From the NCBI GenBank assembly GCA_046758965.1, contig JBHIBG010000007.1, positions 5,276-69,275 of the forward strand: DNA of 64,000 bases, read 5' to 3'. The stretch is from Candidatus Methylomirabilia bacterium. GTDB lineage: Bacteria > Methylomirabilota > Methylomirabilia > Rokubacteriales > CSP1-6. The notes below the pieces were generated by a model. That model saw only the letters and a program-made list of their open reading frames with translations, searched no databases and was not told where the DNA came from. Shown one piece after another: positions 3,070-18,442 of this stretch. Within the stretch, counting starts at the first letter, position 1. Each line of letters opens with the position of its first letter. A program made the translations under genes and the position numbers.

Positions 3070-4041
3070 ATGGCGGACTATGCGGTGGTGACGGATGGGC
3101 TGACGCGGCGGTTCGGCACCCTGGTTGCGGTGGACGACCTCAACCTGCGGGTGCGCGCCGGCGAGGTCTATGGCTTCCTGGGTCCCAACGGCGCAGGCAA
3201 ATCCACCACGCTCCGGATGCTCTGCGGGATCCTGGAGCCGTCCGACGGGACGGGCACGGTGCTGGGCATCGACCTCCGCCGCGATCCCGAACGGGTGAAG
3301 TCGGTCATTGGCTACATGTCTCAGCGGTTCTCCCTCTACGACGACCTTACCGCGGAAGAAAACCTCACCTTCTACGCGCGCGTGTACATGGTGGTGCGCG
3401 CCGAGCGCGAGGGCCGGATTGCCCAGATGATCCGCCTGGCTGACCTGGTGGGACAGGAGAAGAAGCGCGCGGCCCATCTCTCCGGTGGCTACCGCCAGCG
3501 CCTGGCCTTGGCCTGCGCGATGGTTCACCGGCCCCGTCTGGTGCTCCTCGATGAGCCCACGGCCGGCGTGGATCCTGTCTCGCGGCGCAACTTCTGGGGC
3601 CTGATCCGGCGCCTCGTCGAGGAAGGGGTGACCGCCATGGTCACCACTCACTACATGGACGAGGCGGAGCTCTGCGACACCCTGAGCTTCATCTACCAGG
3701 GGAAACTGATCGCCCAGGGCGCGCCAGCCGAGATCAAGGCGACGGCGTTCAACAAGCCCGTGGTCGAGGTTGAGGTGGAGGGCCTCCGCCGCGCGACGGA
3801 CCTGCTCGCGGAATGGGAGGCGGTGGAGGAGGCCGTCAAGGTGGGGCCCAAGCTCCGCCTCATCCTGACGGACGAGAGAGGAACCCCGGAGGCCGTGATG
3901 CGCTACCTGGAGGGGCACGGGATGACAGGAGTGTCGGCCCGGGAGGTGGAACCCTCGGTGGAGGACCTGTTTGTCTCCTTTGTCGATGTCGAGCGGAAGG
4001 CCAGGCTCCGCGAGCAGCTCCGGGCCGTGACGAGCTGGTGA
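3070..4041 (+). CDS. ABC transporter ATP-binding protein (ABC-2 type).
   Basis: Walker A GPNGAGKST, ABC signature LSGGYRQRLALA and Walker B LVLLDEPTAGVD. Confidence 0.9.
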   Translation: MADYAVVTDGLTRRFGTLVAVDDLNLRVRAGEVYGFLGPNGAGKSTTLRMLCGILEPSDGTGTVLGIDLRRDPERVKSVIGYMSQRFSLYDDLTAEENLTFYARVYMVVRAEREGRIAQMIRLADLVGQEKKRAAHLSGGYRQRLALACAMVHRPRLVLLDEPTAGVDPVSRRNFWGLIRRLVEEGVTAMVTTHYMDEAELCDTLSFIYQGKLIAQGAPAEIKATAFNKPVVEVEVEGLRRATDLLAEWEAVEEAVKVGPKLRLILTDERGTPEAVMRYLEGHGMTGVSAREVEPSVEDLFVSFVDVERKARLREQLRAVTSW

Positions 4042-4042
4042 G

Positions 4043-5173
4043 ATGGCGAGCCGGCTGTTCGGGATGATCGCCAAGGAGTTCATCCACCTCCGGCGAGACC
4101 CGCTCGCCGTGACGCTGGCGCTCTTCGTGCCGGTGGTGATGCTCTTCATCTTCGGCTGGGCCATCAACACCGACGTCAAGCACATCCCGACCGTGGTCTT
4201 CGACCAGTCTCGGAGCAGGGAGGCGCGCACGCTCCTGGAGGCGCTGGTCAACAGCCAGTACTTCGATCTTACCCACTGGGCACGCAGCTACGCCGAGGTC
4301 ACCCGGCTGATCGATGAGGGGAAGGTCAAAGTCGGGATCGTGATTCCGCCGGACTACGCCCGGGACTTGGCCCGCCAGGCGGCGGCGATCCAGGTGATCG
4401 TGGACGCCTCCGATCCCCTGGTGGCGGCCTCGGCGATCAACTCCGCAACCTCGCTGGGGCTCCAGCGCTCCCTCCAGGTCCTCTCCAGGAACCTGGAAGG
4501 GACCGCGCTCCTCCGGCGAGTCGACAAGCTGCCCGTGGACTTCCGGGTGCGCGCCTGGTACAATCCCGATCTGCTCAGCGCCTTCTTCATCGTCCCCGGG
4601 CTCATCGGCACCCTCCTGATGCAGACCACCATTACCGCTATGGCGGTCGCCGTGGTCCGGGAGCGGGAGAAGGGAACACTGGAGACGCTCATCGTCAGCC
4701 CGATCCGGCGCTGGGAGTTGATGCTCGGGAAGATCATTCCCAACCTCGTGGTGGCCTATGGCCAGATGACGATGGCCCTCCTGGTGGCCCACTTCATCTT
4801 CGGCGTCCCGATCCGGGGGAGCCTGCCGTTGCTCTACGCCTTGTCGGCGGCCTTCATGTGGGGGACGCTCGGGATCGGGATCTTTGTCTCCACCGTGGCC
4901 AAGACCGTCCCCCAGGCCATGCAGCTCTCCTTCATGACTTTCCTGCCGTCGATCTACCTCTCGGGTCTCCTCTTCCCCATCGAGGGGATGCCGGAGGGGG
5001 CCCAGTATCTGGCGTCGATCATTCCGTTGACGTACTACCTCAGGATCGTCCGCGGCATCGTGCTGAAGGGGGTCGGGATTGGCTACCTCTGGCCCAACCT
5101 CCTCCCGCTCGTCGCCTTCGGCGCCGTCATCTTCACGCTGGCGGTGCTGCGCTTCCGGAAATCCTTGGATTGA
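4043..5173 (+). CDS. ABC-2 family transporter permease.
   Basis: An N-terminal TM helix is followed by a large periplasmic loop and then a cluster of 5 TM helices. This is the ABC-2 topology. The start lies 2 nt after the ATPase stop. Confidence 0.8.
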   Translation: MASRLFGMIAKEFIHLRRDPLAVTLALFVPVVMLFIFGWAINTDVKHIPTVVFDQSRSREARTLLEALVNSQYFDLTHWARSYAEVTRLIDEGKVKVGIVIPPDYARDLARQAAAIQVIVDASDPLVAASAINSATSLGLQRSLQVLSRNLEGTALLRRVDKLPVDFRVRAWYNPDLLSAFFIVPGLIGTLLMQTTITAMAVAVVREREKGTLETLIVSPIRRWELMLGKIIPNLVVAYGQMTMALLVAHFIFGVPIRGSLPLLYALSAAFMWGTLGIGIFVSTVAKTVPQAMQLSFMTFLPSIYLSGLLFPIEGMPEGAQYLASIIPLTYYLRIVRGIVLKGVGIGYLWPNLLPLVAFGAVIFTLAVLRFRKSLD

Positions 5174-5185
5174 GAGGTTCGGTGC

Positions 5186-6487
5186 ATGCGACAGCTCACG
5201 TGGATGCTCGCCTTCCTCCTGCTGGGAGCCGCCCCGGTCGGGGCGGCTCCCTTGCGCGCCCACCGCGAAGTTCTGCCCAATGGCCTCGTCCTTCTGGTTG
5301 CCGAGCGCCCCGCTATCCCCATCGTGGTGGTGCGCGCCTATGTGCGGGCCGGGTCGGCCTTCGACCCGCCGGACCATCCCGGCTTGGCCAACCTGACGGC
5401 TGGGCTTCTGACCCGTGGCACCGGCCAGCGCTCCGGCCCCGAGCTCGATGAGGCCATCGAATTTGTCGGCGGAAGCCTTGGCGCGAGCGCCGGGCGCGAC
5501 GGCGTGACGCTCTCCCTCGCCGTGCTGAAGAAGGACCTCGCGCTCGGGCTCGACCTCCTGGCCGAGGTCCTGCTCGAGCCCGTCTTCCCGGAGGAGGAGC
5601 TCAGGAGAACGGTCAAGGAGATCCAGGCCGCGATCCGGGCTTCGGAGGATGACCCGGCCCGGGTGGCGGCGCGTGCGCTCGCCCGGCTCCTCTACCCGGG
5701 CCATCCCTACGAGCACCCGGTGGCGGGGAGTGAGGTCGCGGTCGGGAAGCTCACTCGCGACCAGGTGGTGGAGTTCTACCGGCGTCACTACCGGCCGGAT
5801 GCCATGATCGTGACCGTGGTGGGGGATGTCCGGCGCGGGGCGATCGTCAAGGAGCTGGCGGGGAGGTTCGGGCGCTGGGCGGTAGCCGGGGACGGCCCGC
5901 CCCAGGTGCCGCTCGCCCCGGCTGCTCCACCGGTCCGGGCCCGCACGGTCACCCGCGAGCTCACGCAGGCGACGGTCTATCTGGGGCGCCCGGGCATCGG
6001 GTGGAACCATCCGGACTACTATCCGCTTCGGGTTGCGAGCTACATCCTGGGAGGCGGCTCTGCCTCTCGGCTCTACACCGCGGTGCGAGACCAGGCAGGA
6101 CTCGCCTACTCAGTCTGGAGCTACGTCGCCGCGCGACGCTACGGGGCCGTGCTGGTGGTGGGTCTCCAGACGCGGACTGAGGGGCTGGCCAAGGCACTTC
6201 AGCTCATCAGGGCAGAGATGGCCCGCATGGGCGAGGAGCCGGTCTCGGAGCAGGAGCTGGGCCTGGCTCAGGCCTACCTCACCGGGAGCTTTCCGCTCCG
6301 GATGGACACCTCCGGCGAGCTGGCGAACCTCCTCCTCACGGTGGAGGCGTTCGGCTTGGGCCTCGACTATCCCGACCGCTTCAAGGAGCAGGTGGAGCAG
6401 GTCACCGCGGCCGATATCGAGCGGGTGGCGAAGATCTACCTGGATCCGACCACCTTCTCGACCGTGAGCGTCGGGAAGCTGGACTGA
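5186..6487 (+). CDS. M16 family peptidase-like protein, probably the non-catalytic partner subunit (no HxxEH).
   Basis: It has a signal peptide (MRQLTWMLAFLLLGAAPVGAAP) and M16 fold-like blocks but lacks the HxxEH motif. It pairs with the 509..1891 gene and flanks the exporter. Confidence 0.75.
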   Translation: MRQLTWMLAFLLLGAAPVGAAPLRAHREVLPNGLVLLVAERPAIPIVVVRAYVRAGSAFDPPDHPGLANLTAGLLTRGTGQRSGPELDEAIEFVGGSLGASAGRDGVTLSLAVLKKDLALGLDLLAEVLLEPVFPEEELRRTVKEIQAAIRASEDDPARVAARALARLLYPGHPYEHPVAGSEVAVGKLTRDQVVEFYRRHYRPDAMIVTVVGDVRRGAIVKELAGRFGRWAVAGDGPPQVPLAPAAPPVRARTVTRELTQATVYLGRPGIGWNHPDYYPLRVASYILGGGSASRLYTAVRDQAGLAYSVWSYVAARRYGAVLVVGLQTRTEGLAKALQLIRAEMARMGEEPVSEQELGLAQAYLTGSFPLRMDTSGELANLLLTVEAFGLGLDYPDRFKEQVEQVTAADIERVAKIYLDPTTFSTVSVGKLD

Positions 6488-7084
6488 GTGGTACAATTTG
6501 GTGCGATGAACGTTTGGCTCATCGGCCTCGGATTCTTCCTCATCGGCCTTCTCGGGGGCGCCCCGCTCTCCGCGGCTTCCTTTTCGCTCACGCCCGGAGA
6601 GACGAGGGAGGCGCTCCGGGTGGGCCAGCGGAGCGTCGTCTCCAAAGAGTTCGGGAAGGAATGGCAGGTGGTGAACGAAAACGGGGACTCCCTCAGGGTC
6701 ATGACCCCGTTCCACCGGCTGGCCCTCGGCGCCCGGAACGCGGCCTTCAAAAACGAGACCCTCACCGAGCGAGAGATCGAGAAGATTCTCCGGGCGAAGG
6801 AGGGGAGGCTCCTCTTCTGGGCCAACCTCCACGGCGGCCGCACCGAGTTCGCCCGCTGGTATCGGCCGATGCTCCTGCTTCCCAACAACGAGGAGATCAA
6901 GCCGGCCTTCGTCCAGAATGAGCGGACGGCCCTACCCCTCGAAAACGGGCGCTATCTGGCTCGCTGCCTCTACTCGTTTCCCACCGAGAGGCTTCGCGCG
7001 AAGAGCCGGGTCGTGCTCGTGGTTCGGGAGCCTGACGGCAGAGAGGCTGCGCGATTCACACTGGACTTTTCGACCATGCGGTAA
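6488..7084 (+). CDS. Hypothetical secreted protein.
   Basis: N-terminal signal peptide (MNVWLIGLGFFLIGLLGGAPLSAASF). No recognisable family. It starts immediately after the M16 stop. Confidence 0.45.
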   Translation: MVQFGAMNVWLIGLGFFLIGLLGGAPLSAASFSLTPGETREALRVGQRSVVSKEFGKEWQVVNENGDSLRVMTPFHRLALGARNAAFKNETLTEREIEKILRAKEGRLLFWANLHGGRTEFARWYRPMLLLPNNEEIKPAFVQNERTALPLENGRYLARCLYSFPTERLRAKSRVVLVVREPDGREAARFTLDFSTMR

Positions 7085-7097
7085 GAAGGGGAGAGGA

Positions 7098-7604
7098 ATG
7101 GTGACCAAGGAGCGCTTCCAGCAGGGGATGACCTTTCAGCAGTACCTGGACCAGATGGGGACCAACAAGGAGAGATTCGTCCAGTTCCTCCGGGAGATCG
7201 CCATCACTCCCGAAGATCGAGAGGCGATGAAAAAGCTCTCGGGGAAGAAGCTCAATGTCCTGGTCATTACCGAGGACTGGTGCGGTGATGCGCTCTACAA
7301 CGTCCCTGTTCTGGCCAAACTCATGGAAGGGCTCCCCAACGTGGAGATGCGCGTCTTCCTCCGGGACCAGAACCCGGACCTCATAAACCGCTATCTGAAC
7401 CAGGGGCTGTACCGGTCGATTCCGGTCTTCGCCTTCTTCGACGAGAACATGAACGAGATCGCGCGCTTCATCGAGCGCCCTCCCAAGGTCACCGAGGTCC
7501 TCGAGCAGAAGATGCTCGAGGTGCGCCGGGCCTTCCGCAGCGAGCGCCTGGAAGAGTGGCGCCAGGCCGTTGTGGATGAGGTGCGCCAACTCCTCAGCGT
7601 CTAA
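7098..7604 (+). CDS. Thioredoxin-fold family protein with a WCGD motif.
   Basis: The motif LVITEDWCGDALYNVPVL sits in a thioredoxin-like context, with a single Cys where Trx has CxxC. RBS GGGGAGAGG lies 6-8 nt upstream of ATG 7098. This is the inner start of ORF 6918..7604. Confidence 0.6.
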   Translation: MVTKERFQQGMTFQQYLDQMGTNKERFVQFLREIAITPEDREAMKKLSGKKLNVLVITEDWCGDALYNVPVLAKLMEGLPNVEMRVFLRDQNPDLINRYLNQGLYRSIPVFAFFDENMNEIARFIERPPKVTEVLEQKMLEVRRAFRSERLEEWRQAVVDEVRQLLSV

Positions 7605-9715: not shown

Positions 9716-9877
9716 GCGTGGGGGGGCGCGTTCGGAGTTGGGGTGCTCGAGCGCCGGCGCCGCCGACGCAATCTCACGGGGGAGGTTCGGCACGTAAAGC
9801 GGCCTTGCCTCGGCGAGGCCGCGGAGAGCCCGAGTCGGGAGCGAGGAAAGGGGGACGGTAGTCTCCCTCCGAGCGTT

Positions 9878-10717
9878 ATGACCAGGGTGAGCTTGGTGAC
9901 GGTGGTCTTCAACCAGCTCCCGCTGACCCGTCGTTGCCTCGAAAGCCTCCGTCCCACCACAATCCCCTTCGACCTCGTGGCGGTCGACAATGGCTCCACG
10001 GACGGAACCCGAGAGTTCTTCCAGTCGCTCCGTCATCCCTCCTCCGTCAGCTACCACCGGAACACGGAGAACCTGGGCCTGATCAAGGCCCTGAATCAGG
10101 GTTGGCGACTGGCCCGCGGGGAGTTCGTCTGCTTCCTTCACAACGACACAGAGGTCCGGGAGCCGCGGTGGCTGGAGCGGCTGGCGCAGGCGCTCGATGC
10201 CGATCCCTCAGTCGGGCTCGCCGGCCTCTACGGGGCGAGGCGGATCCGTGGGGACGGGCGTTATGTCGGCCGGACGATCGTGCACTGCCTGGCGGAGGCT
10301 CCCACGCTCCGGGGCCCGGTGGCCGAGGTGGCGGCGGTGGACGGGGTCTGTCTCTTCCTCCGGCGGGAGCTCTTGGAGCGGCTGGGCGGCTTCGACGAGG
10401 GCTATGGCTTCTTCCACGGCTATGACAAGGACCTCTCGTTCGCGGTGCGCGAGACGGGCCGGCGGTGTGTCGTGGTCAACGCGCCTTTCGTCCACCACGG
10501 CGGTGGGACCAGGACGAATTTCTTCACCGGGCTCGCCCGCGCCGGAGACGACCTCGCCCACCGACAGGAGGCGGGGGCCCGTTTTGCCGGCAAATGGGCC
10601 CACCGGCTCCCGTGTGATGTGAGGAGCCGGCTTGAGCGGGTGCGCGACTGGATTGCAGCCAGGCTCCGGGGCGGCGGAGCGGCATCTCTGGCCGCTTCCT
10701 CCCCCGAGCCCCGATGA
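9878..10717 (+). CDS. Family 2 glycosyltransferase.
   Basis: SLVTVVFNQ...VAVDNGSTDGT, a DxD-type context, and typical GT2 length after the internal ATG. The upstream part of ORF 9743..10717 is Arg-rich junk. Confidence 0.75.
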   Translation: MTRVSLVTVVFNQLPLTRRCLESLRPTTIPFDLVAVDNGSTDGTREFFQSLRHPSSVSYHRNTENLGLIKALNQGWRLARGEFVCFLHNDTEVREPRWLERLAQALDADPSVGLAGLYGARRIRGDGRYVGRTIVHCLAEAPTLRGPVAEVAAVDGVCLFLRRELLERLGGFDEGYGFFHGYDKDLSFAVRETGRRCVVVNAPFVHHGGGTRTNFFTGLARAGDDLAHRQEAGARFAGKWAHRLPCDVRSRLERVRDWIAARLRGGGAASLAASSPEPR

Positions 10718-12859: not shown

Positions 12860-14251
12860 TCAGAGCCCGGATTTGTCGGCAAGCGCCAGGGCGGCTTCGG
12901 CGAGGGCCTCGACACGAGGGCCAAAGCCGGCGAATCGCTCGTCCCGGGTCTGGCCGCGCTTGTACCGGATGTAGATCTGCTGGACTACCACCGCGATCTT
13001 GTAGAGGGCAAAGATCTCGTAGAAGGCGATCCTGGAGATGTCACGCCCCGTCTTCTCCGCGTACCGCCGAATGATCTGCGCTCGCGTGTACCACCCGGGC
13101 TGGGCGGTGACCTGGGCTATCGACTCCTTCCGGGCGTACGGGTCTCCCTCTTCAGCCCAGTAGCAGAGGAGAAGCCCGAGGTCCACCAGGGGATCCCCGA
13201 GAGTGCACATCTCCCAGTCCAGCACCGCGATCAGCCGGCCCGGATCCGCAGGGTCCAGCATCACGTTGTCCAGCTTGAAGTCGCCGTGGACCAACGCGGC
13301 CCCAGGCGGCTCAGGGATTCGCTCGGCGAGCCATCGGGCGAGTTGGCTAATGGTGGGCAGCTCGCGGTCCTTCGCGCGCTCCCAGCGCTCCACCCACCCC
13401 TTAACCTGTCGCTCCACGAAGCCCTCCGGTTTTCCCAGGGTCGCGAGCCCGGCGGCCACGTAGTCCACCGCGTGAAGCGCGACCAGCGTGTCCACCATCG
13501 CCTCGCTAACGCGGCGGCGGATCTCGAGAGCGCCTCCCCACTCAGCCGGCTCCTCCCGGCGCACCACGAGCCCCCGCCGTCGCTCCATCACGTAGAACGG
13601 GACGCCGATGACCGAGGGATCCTCGCAGAGCAGGTAGGGGCGCGGGGCAGGAGGGAACACGCGCCAGAGCCCGCCGAGGACCCGGTACTCCCGGCCCATG
13701 TCATGGGCCTTGGGGGCGACAGGGCCGAGCGGAGGCCGACGTATAACGAACTCCTGATCCCCGTAGCGAAGGAGGTAGGTGAGGTTCGAGTGGCCTCCCG
13801 GAAACTGCTCCACCACGAGTGGGCCCGTGGCCCCCTGGAGGCGGTCGCGCAGATAGCGGTCGAGGGCCGAGACGTCGAACCGCTCGTCAGGGCGGACGGG
13901 GGCCGTATCTTCGCTCGGAGGGGGGCTCGGCCCCCCTGCCGAACCTCCGCCCAGGGTGGCGCGGTCGAAGCTTGCGCCCGAACCGGCGGGCGTGGGGCTT
14001 CCCTCGACGGGGCTCGCAATGTGCTGGTCGGCGTGGGTGTTATCCAATCCTAGAACCGGCTCGCGAAGGCGGAGATCGACCTCCGCCGGTCCATCTTGCA
14101 GGCGGCGTGCATACGATGGATTATACGGCGGCTCTCGACAATCACAACCCATTAAGTCGCACGCTCTAGAAAACGGCGTGGGTGGGCGTGGCGGCTCTCC
14201 GGAGCAGCAGCGGTTGCCGGCGAGTGAAGACCCGGAAGGATAACCGCGCAA
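12860..14251 (-). CDS. Phosphotransferase (APH/ChoK-like kinase) family protein.
   Basis: Brenner/catalytic motif [13 protein letters not shown] and the downstream DWE motif. The homologous region begins near [12 protein letters not shown]. The N-terminal roughly 100 aa are Pro/Gly/Ser-rich low complexity, so the true start is uncertain. Confidence 0.7.
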
Positions 14252-14305
14252 GAGACTTGACCCCCCTTGGAAACGGGAGAATCATGGTGTACAGGAGGCT
14301 TGCCG

Positions 14306-15280
14306 ATGATCGGCGAGACAGCCCTCACGATTCGCGCGCGCGAGTTCGAGCCGGCCTACCTCCGGCTCCCGCCGGGGGAGATCGGGCGGCGGGCGGAGGA
14401 GGCCATTGCCGCGCTCGGCTCCTGCCAGGTCTGCCCCCGCAACTGCCGGGTGGACCGCCTCCATGGCAAAGCCGCGGTCTGTAAGTCCGGGCGGCACGCG
14501 GTCGTGGCCTCGCACTTCCCTCACTTCGGGGAGGAGGACTGCCTCCGCGGCTGGAACGGCTCGGGGACCATTTTCTTCTCCTGGTGCAACCTCCGCTGCG
14601 TCTCGTGTCAGAACTTCGACATCAGCCAGAAGGGCGAGGGCGAGCCCGTGGCGCCCGAGCGGCTGGCCGAGATGATGCTGCAGCTCCAGGCCCGCGGCTG
14701 CCACAACATCAACTTCGTGACACCGGAGCACGTGGTACCGCAGATCCTTGAAGCCCTCCTGTTCGCCATCCGCAACGGGCTCAGGCTCCCGATCGTCTAC
14801 AACACCAGCGCCTATGACAGCCTGGAGAGCCTCCGGTGGATGGACGGGATCGTGGACATCTACATGCCAGACTTCAAGGTCTGGAACGGCCAGGTGGCCA
14901 AGCGCTTCTTGAAGGCTCCGGACTATCCTGAGGCGGCGCGAGCCGCGATCCGGGAGATGCACCGGCAGGTCGGCGCGCTCGTCATGGACGAGGATGGCAT
15001 GGCCAAACGGGGAGTGCTGGTCCGTCACCTCGTGATGCCGGGGATGCTGGAGGAGACCCGGCAGATCATGGCATGGTTGGCCCGGGAGCTCTCCCCCGAC
15101 ACATACGTCAACGTGATGGGGCAGTACTCCCCAGCCGGGGCGGTCTCTTCGGAGAAGTACGCAGAGATCAACCGGAAACTCTTCCGGGACGAGTACGAGG
15201 AAGCTGTCAGGATTGCTCGTCAGGCCGGGCTCTGGCGCCTGGATGAGCGCGGCCCGCGCCTCCGCCCGCTGTGGGGGTGA
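14306..15280 (+). CDS. Radical SAM protein, PflX-like (COG1313; homologue of pyruvate formate-lyase activating enzymes).
   Basis: N-terminal Cys cluster CQVCPRNC and radical SAM CNLRCVSCQN (CxxxCxxC). RBS GGAGG lies 9 nt before ATG 14306, which is the inner start of ORF 14267..15280. Confidence 0.75.
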   Translation: MIGETALTIRAREFEPAYLRLPPGEIGRRAEEAIAALGSCQVCPRNCRVDRLHGKAAVCKSGRHAVVASHFPHFGEEDCLRGWNGSGTIFFSWCNLRCVSCQNFDISQKGEGEPVAPERLAEMMLQLQARGCHNINFVTPEHVVPQILEALLFAIRNGLRLPIVYNTSAYDSLESLRWMDGIVDIYMPDFKVWNGQVAKRFLKAPDYPEAARAAIREMHRQVGALVMDEDGMAKRGVLVRHLVMPGMLEETRQIMAWLARELSPDTYVNVMGQYSPAGAVSSEKYAEINRKLFRDEYEEAVRIARQAGLWRLDERGPRLRPLWG

Positions 15281-15334
15281 CGGCGAGCAGGGGCAGTATC
15301 AAAATCTGGACGTGGACAGACGCGGGTCGCAGGG

Positions 15335-15514
15335 TCAGGATGATCTTGATGGAGAGCGGTCAATGGACGTGACCCACGTGATCGTCATACCGTACAGCGC
15401 ATGGACCGAGCCCATCTTGCCCTGGACGTACGCGGGGGTTCGGATCTGTCCGGCTGGGGGTTCCGCTCGGGCCCTGACGCGGTCCCCGGGCTGAAACTTG
15501 GCTGCCGGCGTCAT
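15335..15514 (-). CDS. Nitrile hydratase beta-subunit-like protein, C-terminal SH3-like half.
   Basis: FQPGDRVRAR...AGQIRTPAYVQGKMGSVHALYG matches the NHase beta C-terminal barrel (FKPGD.VRV...GHTR.P.YVRGK.G.I). The ATG at 15514 overlaps the TGA of the N-terminal half (ATGA). Confidence 0.55.
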   Translation of the reverse strand: MTPAAKFQPGDRVRARAEPPAGQIRTPAYVQGKMGSVHALYGMTITWVTSIDRSPSRSS

Positions 15515-15816
15515 CTCCGGGCCTCGATTCCCTGCAGTCTCCGGCCGATTTCTTCGCGCGTCAGGATGCCTTTTTCGATCATGAGCGTCTCGACCGCGAG
15601 GAGCCATCGCTCGTAGCACGTGCACGCCGCATACTTCTTCGGCTCGATGCCCTCAATCGCCCGGCGCAGCTCGTCTACCCGCATCACCCGCTTGTCCGGA
15701 CTCGAGAGGAGCGTGACGATCGCGTCGATCCGCTTTTCCCACCGGGACAGCTCGTGTTCGGCTCTGTCGACGGGCCCGGCGCCGGGCCATCCGCCCCGAT
15801 CATGCACTCGTGGCAT
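15511..15816 (-). CDS. Nitrile hydratase beta-subunit-like protein, N-terminal-domain half.
   Basis: MPRVHDRGGWPGAGPV... and YERWLLAVETLMIEKGILTREEI match the NHase beta N-domain (MNGVHD.GG...; YYEHWL.A.E.LL.EKG.IT..EL). The stop overlaps the next ORF's ATG. Confidence 0.6.
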   Translation of the reverse strand: MPRVHDRGGWPGAGPVDRAEHELSRWEKRIDAIVTLLSSPDKRVMRVDELRRAIEGIEPKKYAACTCYERWLLAVETLMIEKGILTREEIGRRLQGIEARR

Positions 15817-15911: not shown

Positions 15912-16676
15912 TCAGCTCATGAGCTCCATGAGTCGTCGGGCGTTCTGGACCGCGAAGGCGGCCTGGTCGTTGTTGAAGTAGATATAGACGTCCCGCCGGG
16001 TCTCGAGCCAGCTTCTGAGCCGCGTTGCATCGCCCCTCAGCATCCCATCCGGATAGGAGCCACCGTAGCGAACCCCAGTCCCGTGGCGGCGGAGGTAGAC
16101 GAAGTCGGCGGTCACGGGATCCTCGACCGGAAGCTCGTGCCAATCAGCCAGGCACAAGGCCATGTTCGCCTCGCTGAGGCGGTCAAAGATTCCGGGCTCC
16201 AGCCACGAGGGATGGCGCACCTCGAGGACGGCTCGCAGCCCAGGCACCGTCCTCTGCTTGTCGAGCCAGGCGCAGAGCGCGTTCAGCCGGTTGATATCGA
16301 CCTTGAAATTCCCCGGAAGCTGGAAGAGGATCGGGCCGAGACTGGGGCCGAGGCGCTTTGCGCGCGTGAGAAAGGTGCGGAGTGGTTGGCCGACATCCTT
16401 GAGCCGCTTCACATGGGTGATGTAGCGACTGACCTTCACCGCGAAGACAAACCCCTTGGGCACGGCCTGGCGCCACGCCTGGAATCTCTCCGCTTCGGGA
16501 AGGCGGTAGAAGGGGTTGTTCAGCTCCGCCGTGTCGAAGCGCTCGGCGTAGAAGGGGAGCCAGGCGCGCTGGGGGAGTTCGGCCGGGTAGAAGGGGCCGC
16601 GCCAGTGGGGGTAGACGTAGCCGCTGGTGCCGATGAAGACCCGGCCGCCCATCTCAGTTAGGCTAACTTTTCGCAC
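15912..16676 (-). CDS. DUF72 (YecE-like) family protein.
   Basis: FIGTSGYVYPHWRG...FYP...LPFYAERFDTAELNNPFYRLP is the canonical DUF72 N-terminus. The length is about 250 aa. Confidence 0.8.
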   Translation of the reverse strand: MRKVSLTEMGGRVFIGTSGYVYPHWRGPFYPAELPQRAWLPFYAERFDTAELNNPFYRLPEAERFQAWRQAVPKGFVFAVKVSRYITHVKRLKDVGQPLRTFLTRAKRLGPSLGPILFQLPGNFKVDINRLNALCAWLDKQRTVPGLRAVLEVRHPSWLEPGIFDRLSEANMALCLADWHELPVEDPVTADFVYLRRHGTGVRYGGSYPDGMLRGDATRLRSWLETRRDVYIYFNNDQAAFAVQNARRLMELMS

Positions 16677-16720: not shown

Positions 16721-18442
16721 TCAGGAACGTGGTCTGTAGGCCCAATTGAGCAACGATTGTACCGGCAGGGTGTTCAGGACCTGGCTGGGTCCGATCCAGG
16801 CACGGCGGGCCATGGCGATCCCCAGGGTGATGCTGTTGAGGTTGTCGAGGTAGTGCGTGTCACTGTTGATGGCGATGGGAACGCCGAGCTCGGATGCCCT
16901 CCGGGCGTGGACATCCTTCAGGTCCAGCCGCTGCCAGGAAGAGTTGATCTCCAGAGCCTTGCCGTGCCTCTTGGCCGCGGTGAAGACCCGGTCGAGGTCC
17001 ACGTCGTAGGGGTCGCGCTCGCCGATGAGCCGACCCGTGGGGTGAACCAGGATGTTCACGTAGGGGTTCTCCAGGGCTTTGACGATCCGGGCCGTCATCT
17101 CCGCTCGGCTCTGCTTGAAGCGCGAGTGAACGGCAGCCAGCACGATATCCAGCTCCTTCAGGACGTCGTCGGGAAAGTCCATGCGGCCGTCAGCGAGGAT
17201 GTCGCACTCGCTGCCCGCCAGGATCCGGATCTTGTGCTTCTTTTGGAGCTCGCGGATCTTCTTGGTCTGCTCTCGGAGCTCTTCCGGGGTGAGCCCGCCG
17301 GCCACGGCGGAGGAGCGGGAGTGGTCGGAGACAATGATGTACTCGTAGCCCCGCGCCTCGGCGGCCTCGATCAGCTTCTCCAGCGGGTGGTGGCCGTCCG
17401 ACCAGTCGGTGTGGGCATGCAGGTCTCCCCGGATCGCGGCGAGGTCAATCGACTCCGGAAGGCTCCCGTCCAGGGCCGCTTCGATTTCCCCGCTGTTCTC
17501 CCTGAGCTCAGGGGGGATCCACGGAAGCCCGACGGCGGCATAGACCTCCTGCTCGGTGGCGCCGGCGATTCGCGTTCCGCTGGTCTCGTCGAAGACCCCG
17601 TACTCGCTGACCTTGAGCCGTTTGCGCGAGGCGATCTCTCGCACCCGGACATTGTGGTCCTTGGACCCGGTGAAGTACTGGAGCGCGGCGCCAAAGGCGC
17701 CCGGCTCGACCACGCGGAGGTCCACCTGGATCCCCTCCTGATGGCGGATCGAAGCCTTTGTATCGTCGTGGACGAGGAGATCCTGCGCCGACGGCAGCGC
17801 GACGAAGGTTCCCAGCACCCGGGCGGGGTCGGTGGAGGTGACCAGGATGTCAATGTCTCCCACGCTCTCCTTCATCCGACGCACCGAGCCCGCAACCTCA
17901 ATCTGGCTCACCCCGCCGTGGGTGGTGAGCGTCTCCGCTAATGAGCGGGCCAGGGCCACGGCCTTGCCCAGGGGCATGCGGCTCTGGCCGGCCTTCCAGG
18001 TCGCGATGGCCTTGAGAATGTTCTCCCGTGTCTTCTCCCGGATCCCGGGCACCGTGAGGATGTCGCCGGAGCGCGTCGCCTGCTCCAGCTTTTCCACGCT
18101 GTCGATCCCGAGCCGATCGTAGAGGAGCTTGGCGGTCTTCGGGCCGAGACCGCGGACCTCCAGCAGAGCGAGGACCCCGCGCGGGACCTCTGTGCGCATC
18201 AGCTCCAGGTCGGCGATCCTCCCCGACCTCAGGTACTCGGTGATCTTGGCGGCGAGGTCTCGGCCGACGCCAGGAATCTTCTCCAGCTCGCCGCGCCGCG
18301 CGACGGCGGCGATCTCCTCGGCGTGGGATTCCAGGTTCTGGGCGGCTCGCTGGTAGGCCCGGACGCGGAAGATATTCTCGCCCTTGATCTCCAGGAGGGC
18401 GGCTGTTTCGTAGAAGAGCTTGGCGATCTCGAAGTTCTTCAT
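16721..18442 (-). CDS. polX: DNA polymerase X family protein with a C-terminal PHP (histidinol-phosphatase-like) domain.
   Basis: N-terminal helix-hairpin-helix (IFRVRAYQRAAQNL; IPGVGRDLAAKITEY). The Pol beta-like palm has GSVRRMKESVGDIDILV. The C-terminal PHP motifs are DLHAHTDWSDG and GYEYIIVSDHS. Confidence 0.85.
   Translation of the reverse strand: MKNFEIAKLFYETAALLEIKGENIFRVRAYQRAAQNLESHAEEIAAVARRGELEKIPGVGRDLAAKITEYLRSGRIADLELMRTEVPRGVLALLEVRGLGPKTAKLLYDRLGIDSVEKLEQATRSGDILTVPGIREKTRENILKAIATWKAGQSRMPLGKAVALARSLAETLTTHGGVSQIEVAGSVRRMKESVGDIDILVTSTDPARVLGTFVALPSAQDLLVHDDTKASIRHQEGIQVDLRVVEPGAFGAALQYFTGSKDHNVRVREIASRKRLKVSEYGVFDETSGTRIAGATEQEVYAAVGLPWIPPELRENSGEIEAALDGSLPESIDLAAIRGDLHAHTDWSDGHHPLEKLIEAAEARGYEYIIVSDHSRSSAVAGGLTPEELREQTKKIRELQKKHKIRILAGSECDILADGRMDFPDDVLKELDIVLAAVHSRFKQSRAEMTARIVKALENPYVNILVHPTGRLIGERDPYDVDLDRVFTAAKRHGKALEINSSWQRLDLKDVHARRASELGVPIAINSDTHYLDNLNSITLGIAMARRAWIGPSQVLNTLPVQSLLNWAYRPRS

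Follow-up and report, generated by a model that had tools for sequence, protein, structure and literature searches.

A minus-strand locus in a Candidatus Methylomirabilia bacterium, located at positions 15335 to 15816 of the 64,000-nucleotide stretch of DNA analyzed here (the window), is best explained as the relic of a three-gene operon for a cobalt-type nitrile hydratase (NHase). A deletion would have removed the 3' half of the betaC gene and the alpha gene, and the probability of this reading is estimated at approximately 0.8. Operons of this kind are common in Rokuibacteriota/Methylomirabilota, Binatia, and Dehalococcoidia. An ancestor is proposed to have carried the genes betaN, betaC, and alpha, which encode the N-terminal helical half of NHase beta, its C-terminal SH3-like half, and the metal-binding subunit, respectively. 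The deletion would have taken betaC from codon 43 onward, the whole of alpha with its CTLCSC metal site, and about 15 nt beyond, or about 0.83 kb. In place of the gap, 53 nt of unrecognizable sequence would have added 17 codons to the shortened frame, and betaN would have been left over and begun to drift. Since alpha is gone along with half of the SH3-like barrel of beta, the locus is no longer able to make NHase. If the locus is a relic, and a recent one, it should be counted neither as a nitrile-hydrating function in this Methylomirabilia genome nor as a new NHase-like system.

The two open reading frames

A first-pass annotation of the window described two ORFs, and both are present on the minus strand where it placed them, at 15511..15816 (101 aa) and 15335..15514 (59 aa). 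As it also noted, they are joined by a stop/start overlap, ATGA, at 15511-15514, in which the ATG of the second ORF occupies 15514-15512 and the TGA of the first occupies 15513-15511. The window therefore has separate, overlapping genes for betaN and then betaC. In the annotation of the source metagenome-assembled genome (MAG), betaN is MFQ5897325.1 (locus tag ACE5JN_03675) and the shortened betaC is MFQ5897324.1, a 90-aa "SH3-like domain-containing protein" with its start called upstream.

The assignment of the first ORF, betaN, to the N-terminal helical half of NHase beta is well founded. Its match to PF21006 (NHase_beta_N) has E = 8.4e-20 and 71.4 bits, relative to a gathering score of 21.5, and extends over profile positions 1-96 of 115; TIGR03888 is matched over positions 1-96 of 226. 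As whole proteins, betaN (72.9 bits) and the second ORF (38 bits) both score below the TIGR03888 equivalog cutoff of 152.2 bits; intact split halves would also miss this cutoff, with the full betaC of a relative reaching 67.6 bits.

The second ORF had been assigned to the C-terminal barrel. The homology is real, but it is partial: the match to PF02211 (NHase_beta_C; E = 2.7e-9, 37.8 bits, gathering score 27.7) extends over profile positions 9-54 of 98 only, and a complete C-terminal SH3-like domain of about 94-98 residues is not encoded. In an alignment to 79 complete betaC sequences (about 94 aa), the ORF remains on the family consensus through G42 (...GKMGSVHALYG), which is encoded up to nt 15389. 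It aligns to residues 1-40 of the ~94-aa betaC proteins and diverges afterwards. Homology detected by tblastn also stops at nt 15389, and DNA homology to five related loci (L007, L011, L015, L087, and L089) stops at 15402-15404. The second ORF is a fragment and not a C-terminal barrel. The first 42 codons of betaC, at 15389..15514 on the minus strand, are referred to below as betaC'.

The remainder of the 59-aa ORF, at 15335..15388 on the minus strand, comprises 17 codons and a TGA. Its 17 residues (MTITWVTSIDRSPSRSS) match nothing and are unrelated to betaC; the nucleotide sequence has no blastn match and no similarity to betaC or alpha. A frameshifted continuation of betaC was rejected because no frame past 15389 carries on the family sequence, as judged from six-frame translation and tblastn. 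A fusion to the in-frame C-terminus of alpha was also considered. The two sequences are alike by eye, though the score was no better than that of shuffled sequences (p ~0.25, six relatives), and the fusion was rejected. The 59-aa protein clusters only with its own MAG annotation and has no counterpart in other species.

The reported lack of an alpha subunit gene near the pair holds across the entire 64-kb window. A six-frame scan for CxLCxC produced a sole match, a CLLCRC at 3972 that does not belong to an alpha subunit, and a phmmer search of the window with the alpha protein of a relative produced no match.

The betaN-betaC-alpha operon in related genomes

A database search with betaN identified more than 1000 homologues, nearly all of which are stand-alone, about 100 aa long, and contain PF21006. 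Their gene neighborhoods present a three-gene unit composed of betaN (101-105 aa), betaC (94-95 aa), and alpha (206-211 aa). Arrangements were counted over 80 species-representative loci (L007-L086) from Rokuibacteriota, Binatia, Dehalococcoidia/SAR202, Latescibacterota, Tectomicrobia, and other taxa. Consecutive betaN, complete betaC, and alpha genes are present in 72 of the 80. Of the other eight, four are interrupted by contig ends, one carries a betaC that occupies two frames, and three have dispersed genes or betaN alone. The CxLCSC alpha gene that is absent from the window follows directly in the 72 loci.

The close relatives of the window locus (L087, L089, L007, L008, L009, L011, and L015) all have a 94-aa betaC and, where the contig allows, a 206-211-aa alpha. 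The closest relative of betaN in the database is that of L087 (75% identical), which comes from the sibling run SRR29324607 of the series SRR293246xx; in this relative, betaC is complete at 94 aa and the genes are still in their ancestral order. An ATGA (or GTGA) overlap between betaN and betaC is also found in L007, L008, L011, L018, and others, as well as in L087 and L089. Since the same overlap occurs in intact operons, the coupling of betaN and betaC in the window is inherited. The two-gene split is likewise genuine and not the product of a frameshift, given that separate betaN and betaC genes are native to the relatives.

The alpha proteins of the relatives carry a VCTLCSC motif. They pass the cutoff of the NCBIfam equivalog for NHase alpha (TIGR01323, 256.1 bits vs. 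249.85) and fail that for the gamma subunit of thiocyanate hydrolase (SCNase; TIGR03887, 190.7 bits vs. 291.45). Against the PDB, they match alpha chains of Co-type NHases with E values of 1e-63 to 1e-65, compared to 1.8e-44 for the SCNase gamma chain 2dd4_C. Together with the subunit sizes, these cutoffs and matches identify the family as a split-beta, cobalt-type NHase for which the split is the normal state. Across several uncultivated phyla, three-gene NHases of this type are widespread and keep a stable synteny.

An ancestral unsplit beta gene was considered and rejected. The only fused case is a 191-aa protein (P0002) on L003, a contig full of broken genes, and is probably the product of an assembly error. 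At 3339-7267 of this contig (ENA contig_56774), alpha is fragmented into several short ORFs and so is a luciferase-like gene, which suggests assembly indel errors instead of a true fusion.

Some variation in the unit was observed. In Binatia-type loci (L012, L019-L031, L035, L037, L039, L040, and L043), an SDR gene of about 0.8 kb (adh_short_C2, E = 1.7e-56) lies between betaN and betaC, for example at L022:10349-11134; even an intact operon may thus have its two beta halves apart. In a Nitrospinota MAG (L045:10245-10632), the betaC that precedes an intact alpha changes frame, with residues 1-69 in one frame and 68-94 in another, which is either a frameshift mutation or a sequencing error. In L082, betaC and alpha are found 3.6 kb and 6.5 kb downstream of betaN, respectively, and in L077 betaC is 3.2 kb away. 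At L072:4199-4543 and L088:17-310, an intact betaN with YYERW or YYQRW is followed by a convergent, unrelated gene, and no betaC or alpha was found within 8-9 kb downstream. From these two loci, it follows that lone betaN genes recur.

The junction of the proposed deletion

The far side of the proposed deletion is marked by a 45-nt block at 15291..15335 on the minus strand, which shares with the shortened ORF its TGA. The block is 80% identical (36/45 nt) to L007 10666-10709 in the same orientation, where the counterpart is spacer sequence located 16-60 nt past the stop codon of alpha. Its local score of 25.5 compares to a maximum of 17.5 in 500 shuffles, and it occurs as a single copy in the window. 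In a search of 89 loci and 241 million metagenome records, a pattern derived from the block was found after alpha in L007 and in L090, a near-identical twin of L007, and nowhere else. The block is thus spacer sequence specific to this locus, as opposed to a dispersed repeat, with the match coming from this one relative lineage (L007/L090).

Since homology to betaC stops at approximately 15389-15404 and the post-alpha spacer resumes at 15291-15335, about 0.83 kb is missing. In terms of L007, the interval 9837-10665 (829 nt), which contains betaC codons 41-94, alpha, and 15 nt past the alpha stop codon, stands replaced in the window by 53 nt without recognizable similarity. This loss would have been caused by one deletion. 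A permissive tblastn search of 13800-15450 found no remnants beyond chance of alpha or of three genes that accompany it in relatives, namely an FKBP-type gene, a gene for a 367-aa protein, and ACAD. The first-pass annotation had mentioned a decayed operon as one possible account of the locus, and the cut betaC, the post-alpha spacer remnant, and the presence of alpha as the next gene in 72 of 80 related loci all bear this out.

The junction is reproducible and not an artefact of assembly. Independent Logan assemblies of the runs SRR29324603 and SRR29324601 each gave a contig with 100% identity to the window along a 751-nt stretch that spans a DUF72 gene, betaN, betaC', the junction, and the 3' end of a radical SAM gene. 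A search for repeats, IS ends, and microhomology at the junction detected only short repeats at chance level, and neither a terminator nor a known RNA was found in the convergent spacer. A foreign-DNA signature is absent, with GC content flat at 0.63-0.67 across DUF72, betaN, and the junction.

Gene order around the locus

The locus is flanked by the same anchor genes as in L007 and L008: a PolX-type DNA polymerase with a PHP domain (16721..18442, minus strand; Pfam HHH_8, DNA_pol_B_thumb, and PHP), an APH-family phosphotransferase (12860..13948, minus strand; PF01636, E = 1.5e-48), and DapF. These three are 72-82% identical to their orthologues in L007, L008, L009, L011, and L015. Taken individually, PolX is 77-80% identical to the orthologues of L007, L008, and L011, and APH is 74-77% identical to those of L007, L008, L009, and L015. 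From these anchors, the window contains the orthologous locus.

The genes between the anchors are arranged differently. An intact radical SAM gene (14303..15280, plus strand; PF04055) is 74-83% identical to the orthologues of L007, L009, L015, and L087. In L007, L009, L015, L087, and L089, it is situated just upstream of betaN and is divergent, whereas in the window it is downstream of betaC' and convergent with it. The first-pass annotation had described this gene as convergent and PflX-like; the orientation and the radical SAM family are correct, and the matches to NrdG/PflA-type activases are weak. The interval between the likely APH start and the radical SAM start (13949-14302, about 350 nt) matches nothing. 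On the other side, a DUF72 gene (15912..16676, minus strand; PF01904, E = 4e-67) lies between PolX and betaN. No DUF72 homologue was found in about 85 related loci, which makes its position beside betaN unique to the window lineage. An ancestor with DUF72 adjacent to betaN, from which the present order would have arisen by a single deletion, was rejected because no relative has this adjacency.

In L007 and L008, the order is alpha, FKBP, a gene for an unknown protein (367 aa), ACAD, and APH, and all four of the genes that precede APH are absent from the window. Still other arrangements of the interval are present in L008 and L011. From these differing gene orders, the PolX-to-APH interval is fluid in Rokuibacteriota and may be regarded as a rearrangement-prone spot. 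Since the gene order of the window is unlike that of every relative, one deletion cannot explain the whole locus. The added rearrangements would be a switch of side by the radical SAM gene, an insertion of DUF72, and a loss of the FKBP-unknown-ACAD genes, each of which may have come before or after the deletion. As a separate observation, APH adjoins ACAD in L007 and L008, and with this dehydrogenase absent, the APH kinase of the window may be a further gene left without a partner.

State of the surviving betaN gene

The betaN reading frame has no frameshift and no internal stop codon. A Shine-Dalgarno sequence, AAGGAG, lies 8 nt upstream of its ATG, and a sigma-70-like promoter match, TTGACT-16-TACGAT, is predicted by consensus at 15893-15866 on the minus strand (one site found, 0.1 expected in shuffles). 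With both of these sequences present, betaN may still be transcribed and translated.

The protein is 63-75% identical to the betaN proteins of Rokuibacteriota relatives. Conservation among 118 homologues reaches 90% or more at 48 columns, and the protein departs from three of these, with the substitutions T30I, E63A, and Y67C. Position 63 is Glu in 116 of the 118 homologues and E63A is seen in two. Position 67 is Tyr in 117 of the 118, the sole exception being betaN of the window. Residues 37-91 align to residues 42-96 of the beta chain of an Fe-type NHase (2ahj_B) with no change in length and an offset of +5; as a result, Cys67 occupies the position of betaTyr72. In Fe-type NHase, betaTyr72 is one of three strictly conserved candidate catalytic bases (PMC7193024). 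The conserved active-site tyrosine (Fe-type numbering) is therefore replaced by Cys67 in the window, and the loss of this otherwise invariant residue fits relaxed selection.

The distances of betaN point in the same direction. The 63-75% identity of the window protein to close relatives compares to 71-82% for L087 and L089 against those same relatives, and the neighboring radical SAM gene shows no such excess distance. In three-taxon relative-rate comparisons, betaN of the window had more unique changes than L087 or L089 in 10 of 10 cases (for example, 17 vs. 0 and 14 vs. 4). The signal is only nominally significant and, given an assumed tree topology and small counts, no more than suggestive. 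Both the distances and the rates are in keeping with relaxed constraint, and betaN is probably non-functional.

Alternative explanations

Several of these observations may be read differently. Should betaN be a working subunit after all, it would have to pair with a betaC and an alpha encoded elsewhere, whether dispersed or in a second operon. The intact ORF with its Shine-Dalgarno and promoter-like sequences would agree with such a role, as would the dispersed genes of L082 and L077 and the lone intact betaN genes of L072 and L088. The reading is nevertheless rather unlikely given that the window protein has lost the tyrosine found at the betaTyr72-equivalent position in 117 of 118 homologues, has a longer branch than its relatives, and is not accompanied by an alpha gene in 64 kb. 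Among the best 120 of more than 8000 alpha homologues, none has the locus-tag prefix ACE5JN, which is a weak test because most of the entries are nameless. It is very unlikely that betaN with Cys67 has been kept as a stand-alone protein, either as a chaperone or assembly factor resembling the beta-related NHase activators or as a partner for an alpha encoded elsewhere. If this were so, the lone betaN genes of L072 and L088 would be further cases of a recurrent, alpha-independent betaN.

The first-pass annotation also raised a scaffolding or regulatory role for the two ORFs, read as beta halves that are translationally coupled and have no alpha; the ATGA overlap and the lack of a nearby alpha would agree with it. 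This is highly improbable, for the betaC ORF is cut in half: 42 homologous residues followed by an unrelated tail are too little for a 94-residue barrel. The overlap itself is inherited from intact operons (L007, L008, L011, L018, L087, and L089), the 59-aa form exists in this population only, and a piece of post-alpha spacer is still present at the junction. An artefact, whether a chimeric join made during assembly or a frameshift that sequencing introduced into a contiguous beta gene, might be suspected of a MAG, particularly with a "fused" 191-aa beta on L003, albeit on a contig with many broken genes. Such an artefact is extremely unlikely when two other runs, each assembled on its own, yielded identical sequence for the 751 nt that contain DUF72, the junction, and the 3' end of the radical SAM gene. 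Moreover, the betaN/betaC split is native to the family and no downstream frame continues betaC. A relic of a three-gene cobalt-type NHase operon remains the preferred reading.

Comparison with known NHase-type systems

Classical two-subunit cobalt-type NHases, such as the enzymes from Pseudomonas putida (PDB: 3QXE) and Pseudonocardia thermophila (PDB: 1IRE), provide the closest match to betaN among solved structures (3qxe_B, residues 3-92, E = 8e-12). The family of the window shares with them an alpha with VCTLCSC that passes the TIGR01323 cutoff. It differs in that the beta subunit, a single polypeptide of about 220-230 aa in the classical enzymes, is encoded by two genes. In the window, moreover, the C-terminal half is shortened and alpha is absent.

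SCNase (PDB: 2DD4) is a three-subunit enzyme of the NHase family, and two of its subunits are counterparts of the N- and C-terminal halves of NHase beta. The first-pass annotation drew on this enzyme as an analogy, which is sound for architecture and does not extend further, as the alpha of the relatives is of the NHase type and not an SCNase gamma. Membership in the thiocyanate hydrolases was rejected on the failed TIGR03887 cutoff (190.7 vs. 291.45 bits) and on the PDB matches of betaN, which at E <= 0.01 include no SCNase beta or alpha chain.

NHase accessory or activator proteins (TIGR03889; P14K/NhlE-type) resemble betaN in being small, stand-alone proteins related to part of NHase beta. 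The closest relatives of betaN, in contrast, are true betaN subunits in three-gene operons. A search against TIGR03889 returned 14.9 bits relative to a cutoff of 46 and covered positions 49-73 of 74 only (25 residues), and the assignment of betaN as an accessory protein was rejected.

The toyocamycin NHase (ToyJKL) has subunits of 21.2, 10, and 11.4 kDa that form an (alpha-beta-gamma)2 complex (PMC8574189). The polypeptides of the intact relatives, at approximately 210, 94, and 101 aa, match these subunit sizes, and in both systems NHase beta consists of two separate proteins beside a normal alpha; the likeness is one of architecture. Of the three genes, the window retains betaN and about half of betaC, and it lacks alpha. 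In addition, the hosts are uncultivated Methylomirabilota instead of Streptomyces and there is no nucleoside-antibiotic cluster.

Additional features of the related loci

In Rokuibacteriota, alpha is followed by the FKBP-type gene and the 367-aa gene, which has no Pfam match (L008:11221-12854 and L007:10790-12444). No classical NHase activator gene was seen beside alpha in these loci. The two genes could encode maturation factors of this NHase family.

The radical SAM orthologue of L015 (1-1778, minus strand) contains an insert of about 450 aa directly after the cluster-binding motif CNLRCVFC. The insert has Cys as its first residue, ends in ...VGN followed by Cys, and contains LAGLIDADG-type motifs. 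In Pfam, it matches LAGLIDADG_3 with 23.2 bits (gathering score 22.5) and Intein_splicing with E = 8.5e-6, below the gathering score. From its sequence, the insert looks like an intein with a homing endonuclease.

The N-terminal helix of alpha (residues 16-52 in L007, YYEKRTDAIQALLIEKGAITADEV) has a weak, repeated similarity to the two helical motifs of betaN, with tblastn E values of 1e-5 to 1e-7; the similarity was also detected in L072, L077, L082, and L088. The precomputed matches of Pfam place PF21006 on many alpha proteins as well.
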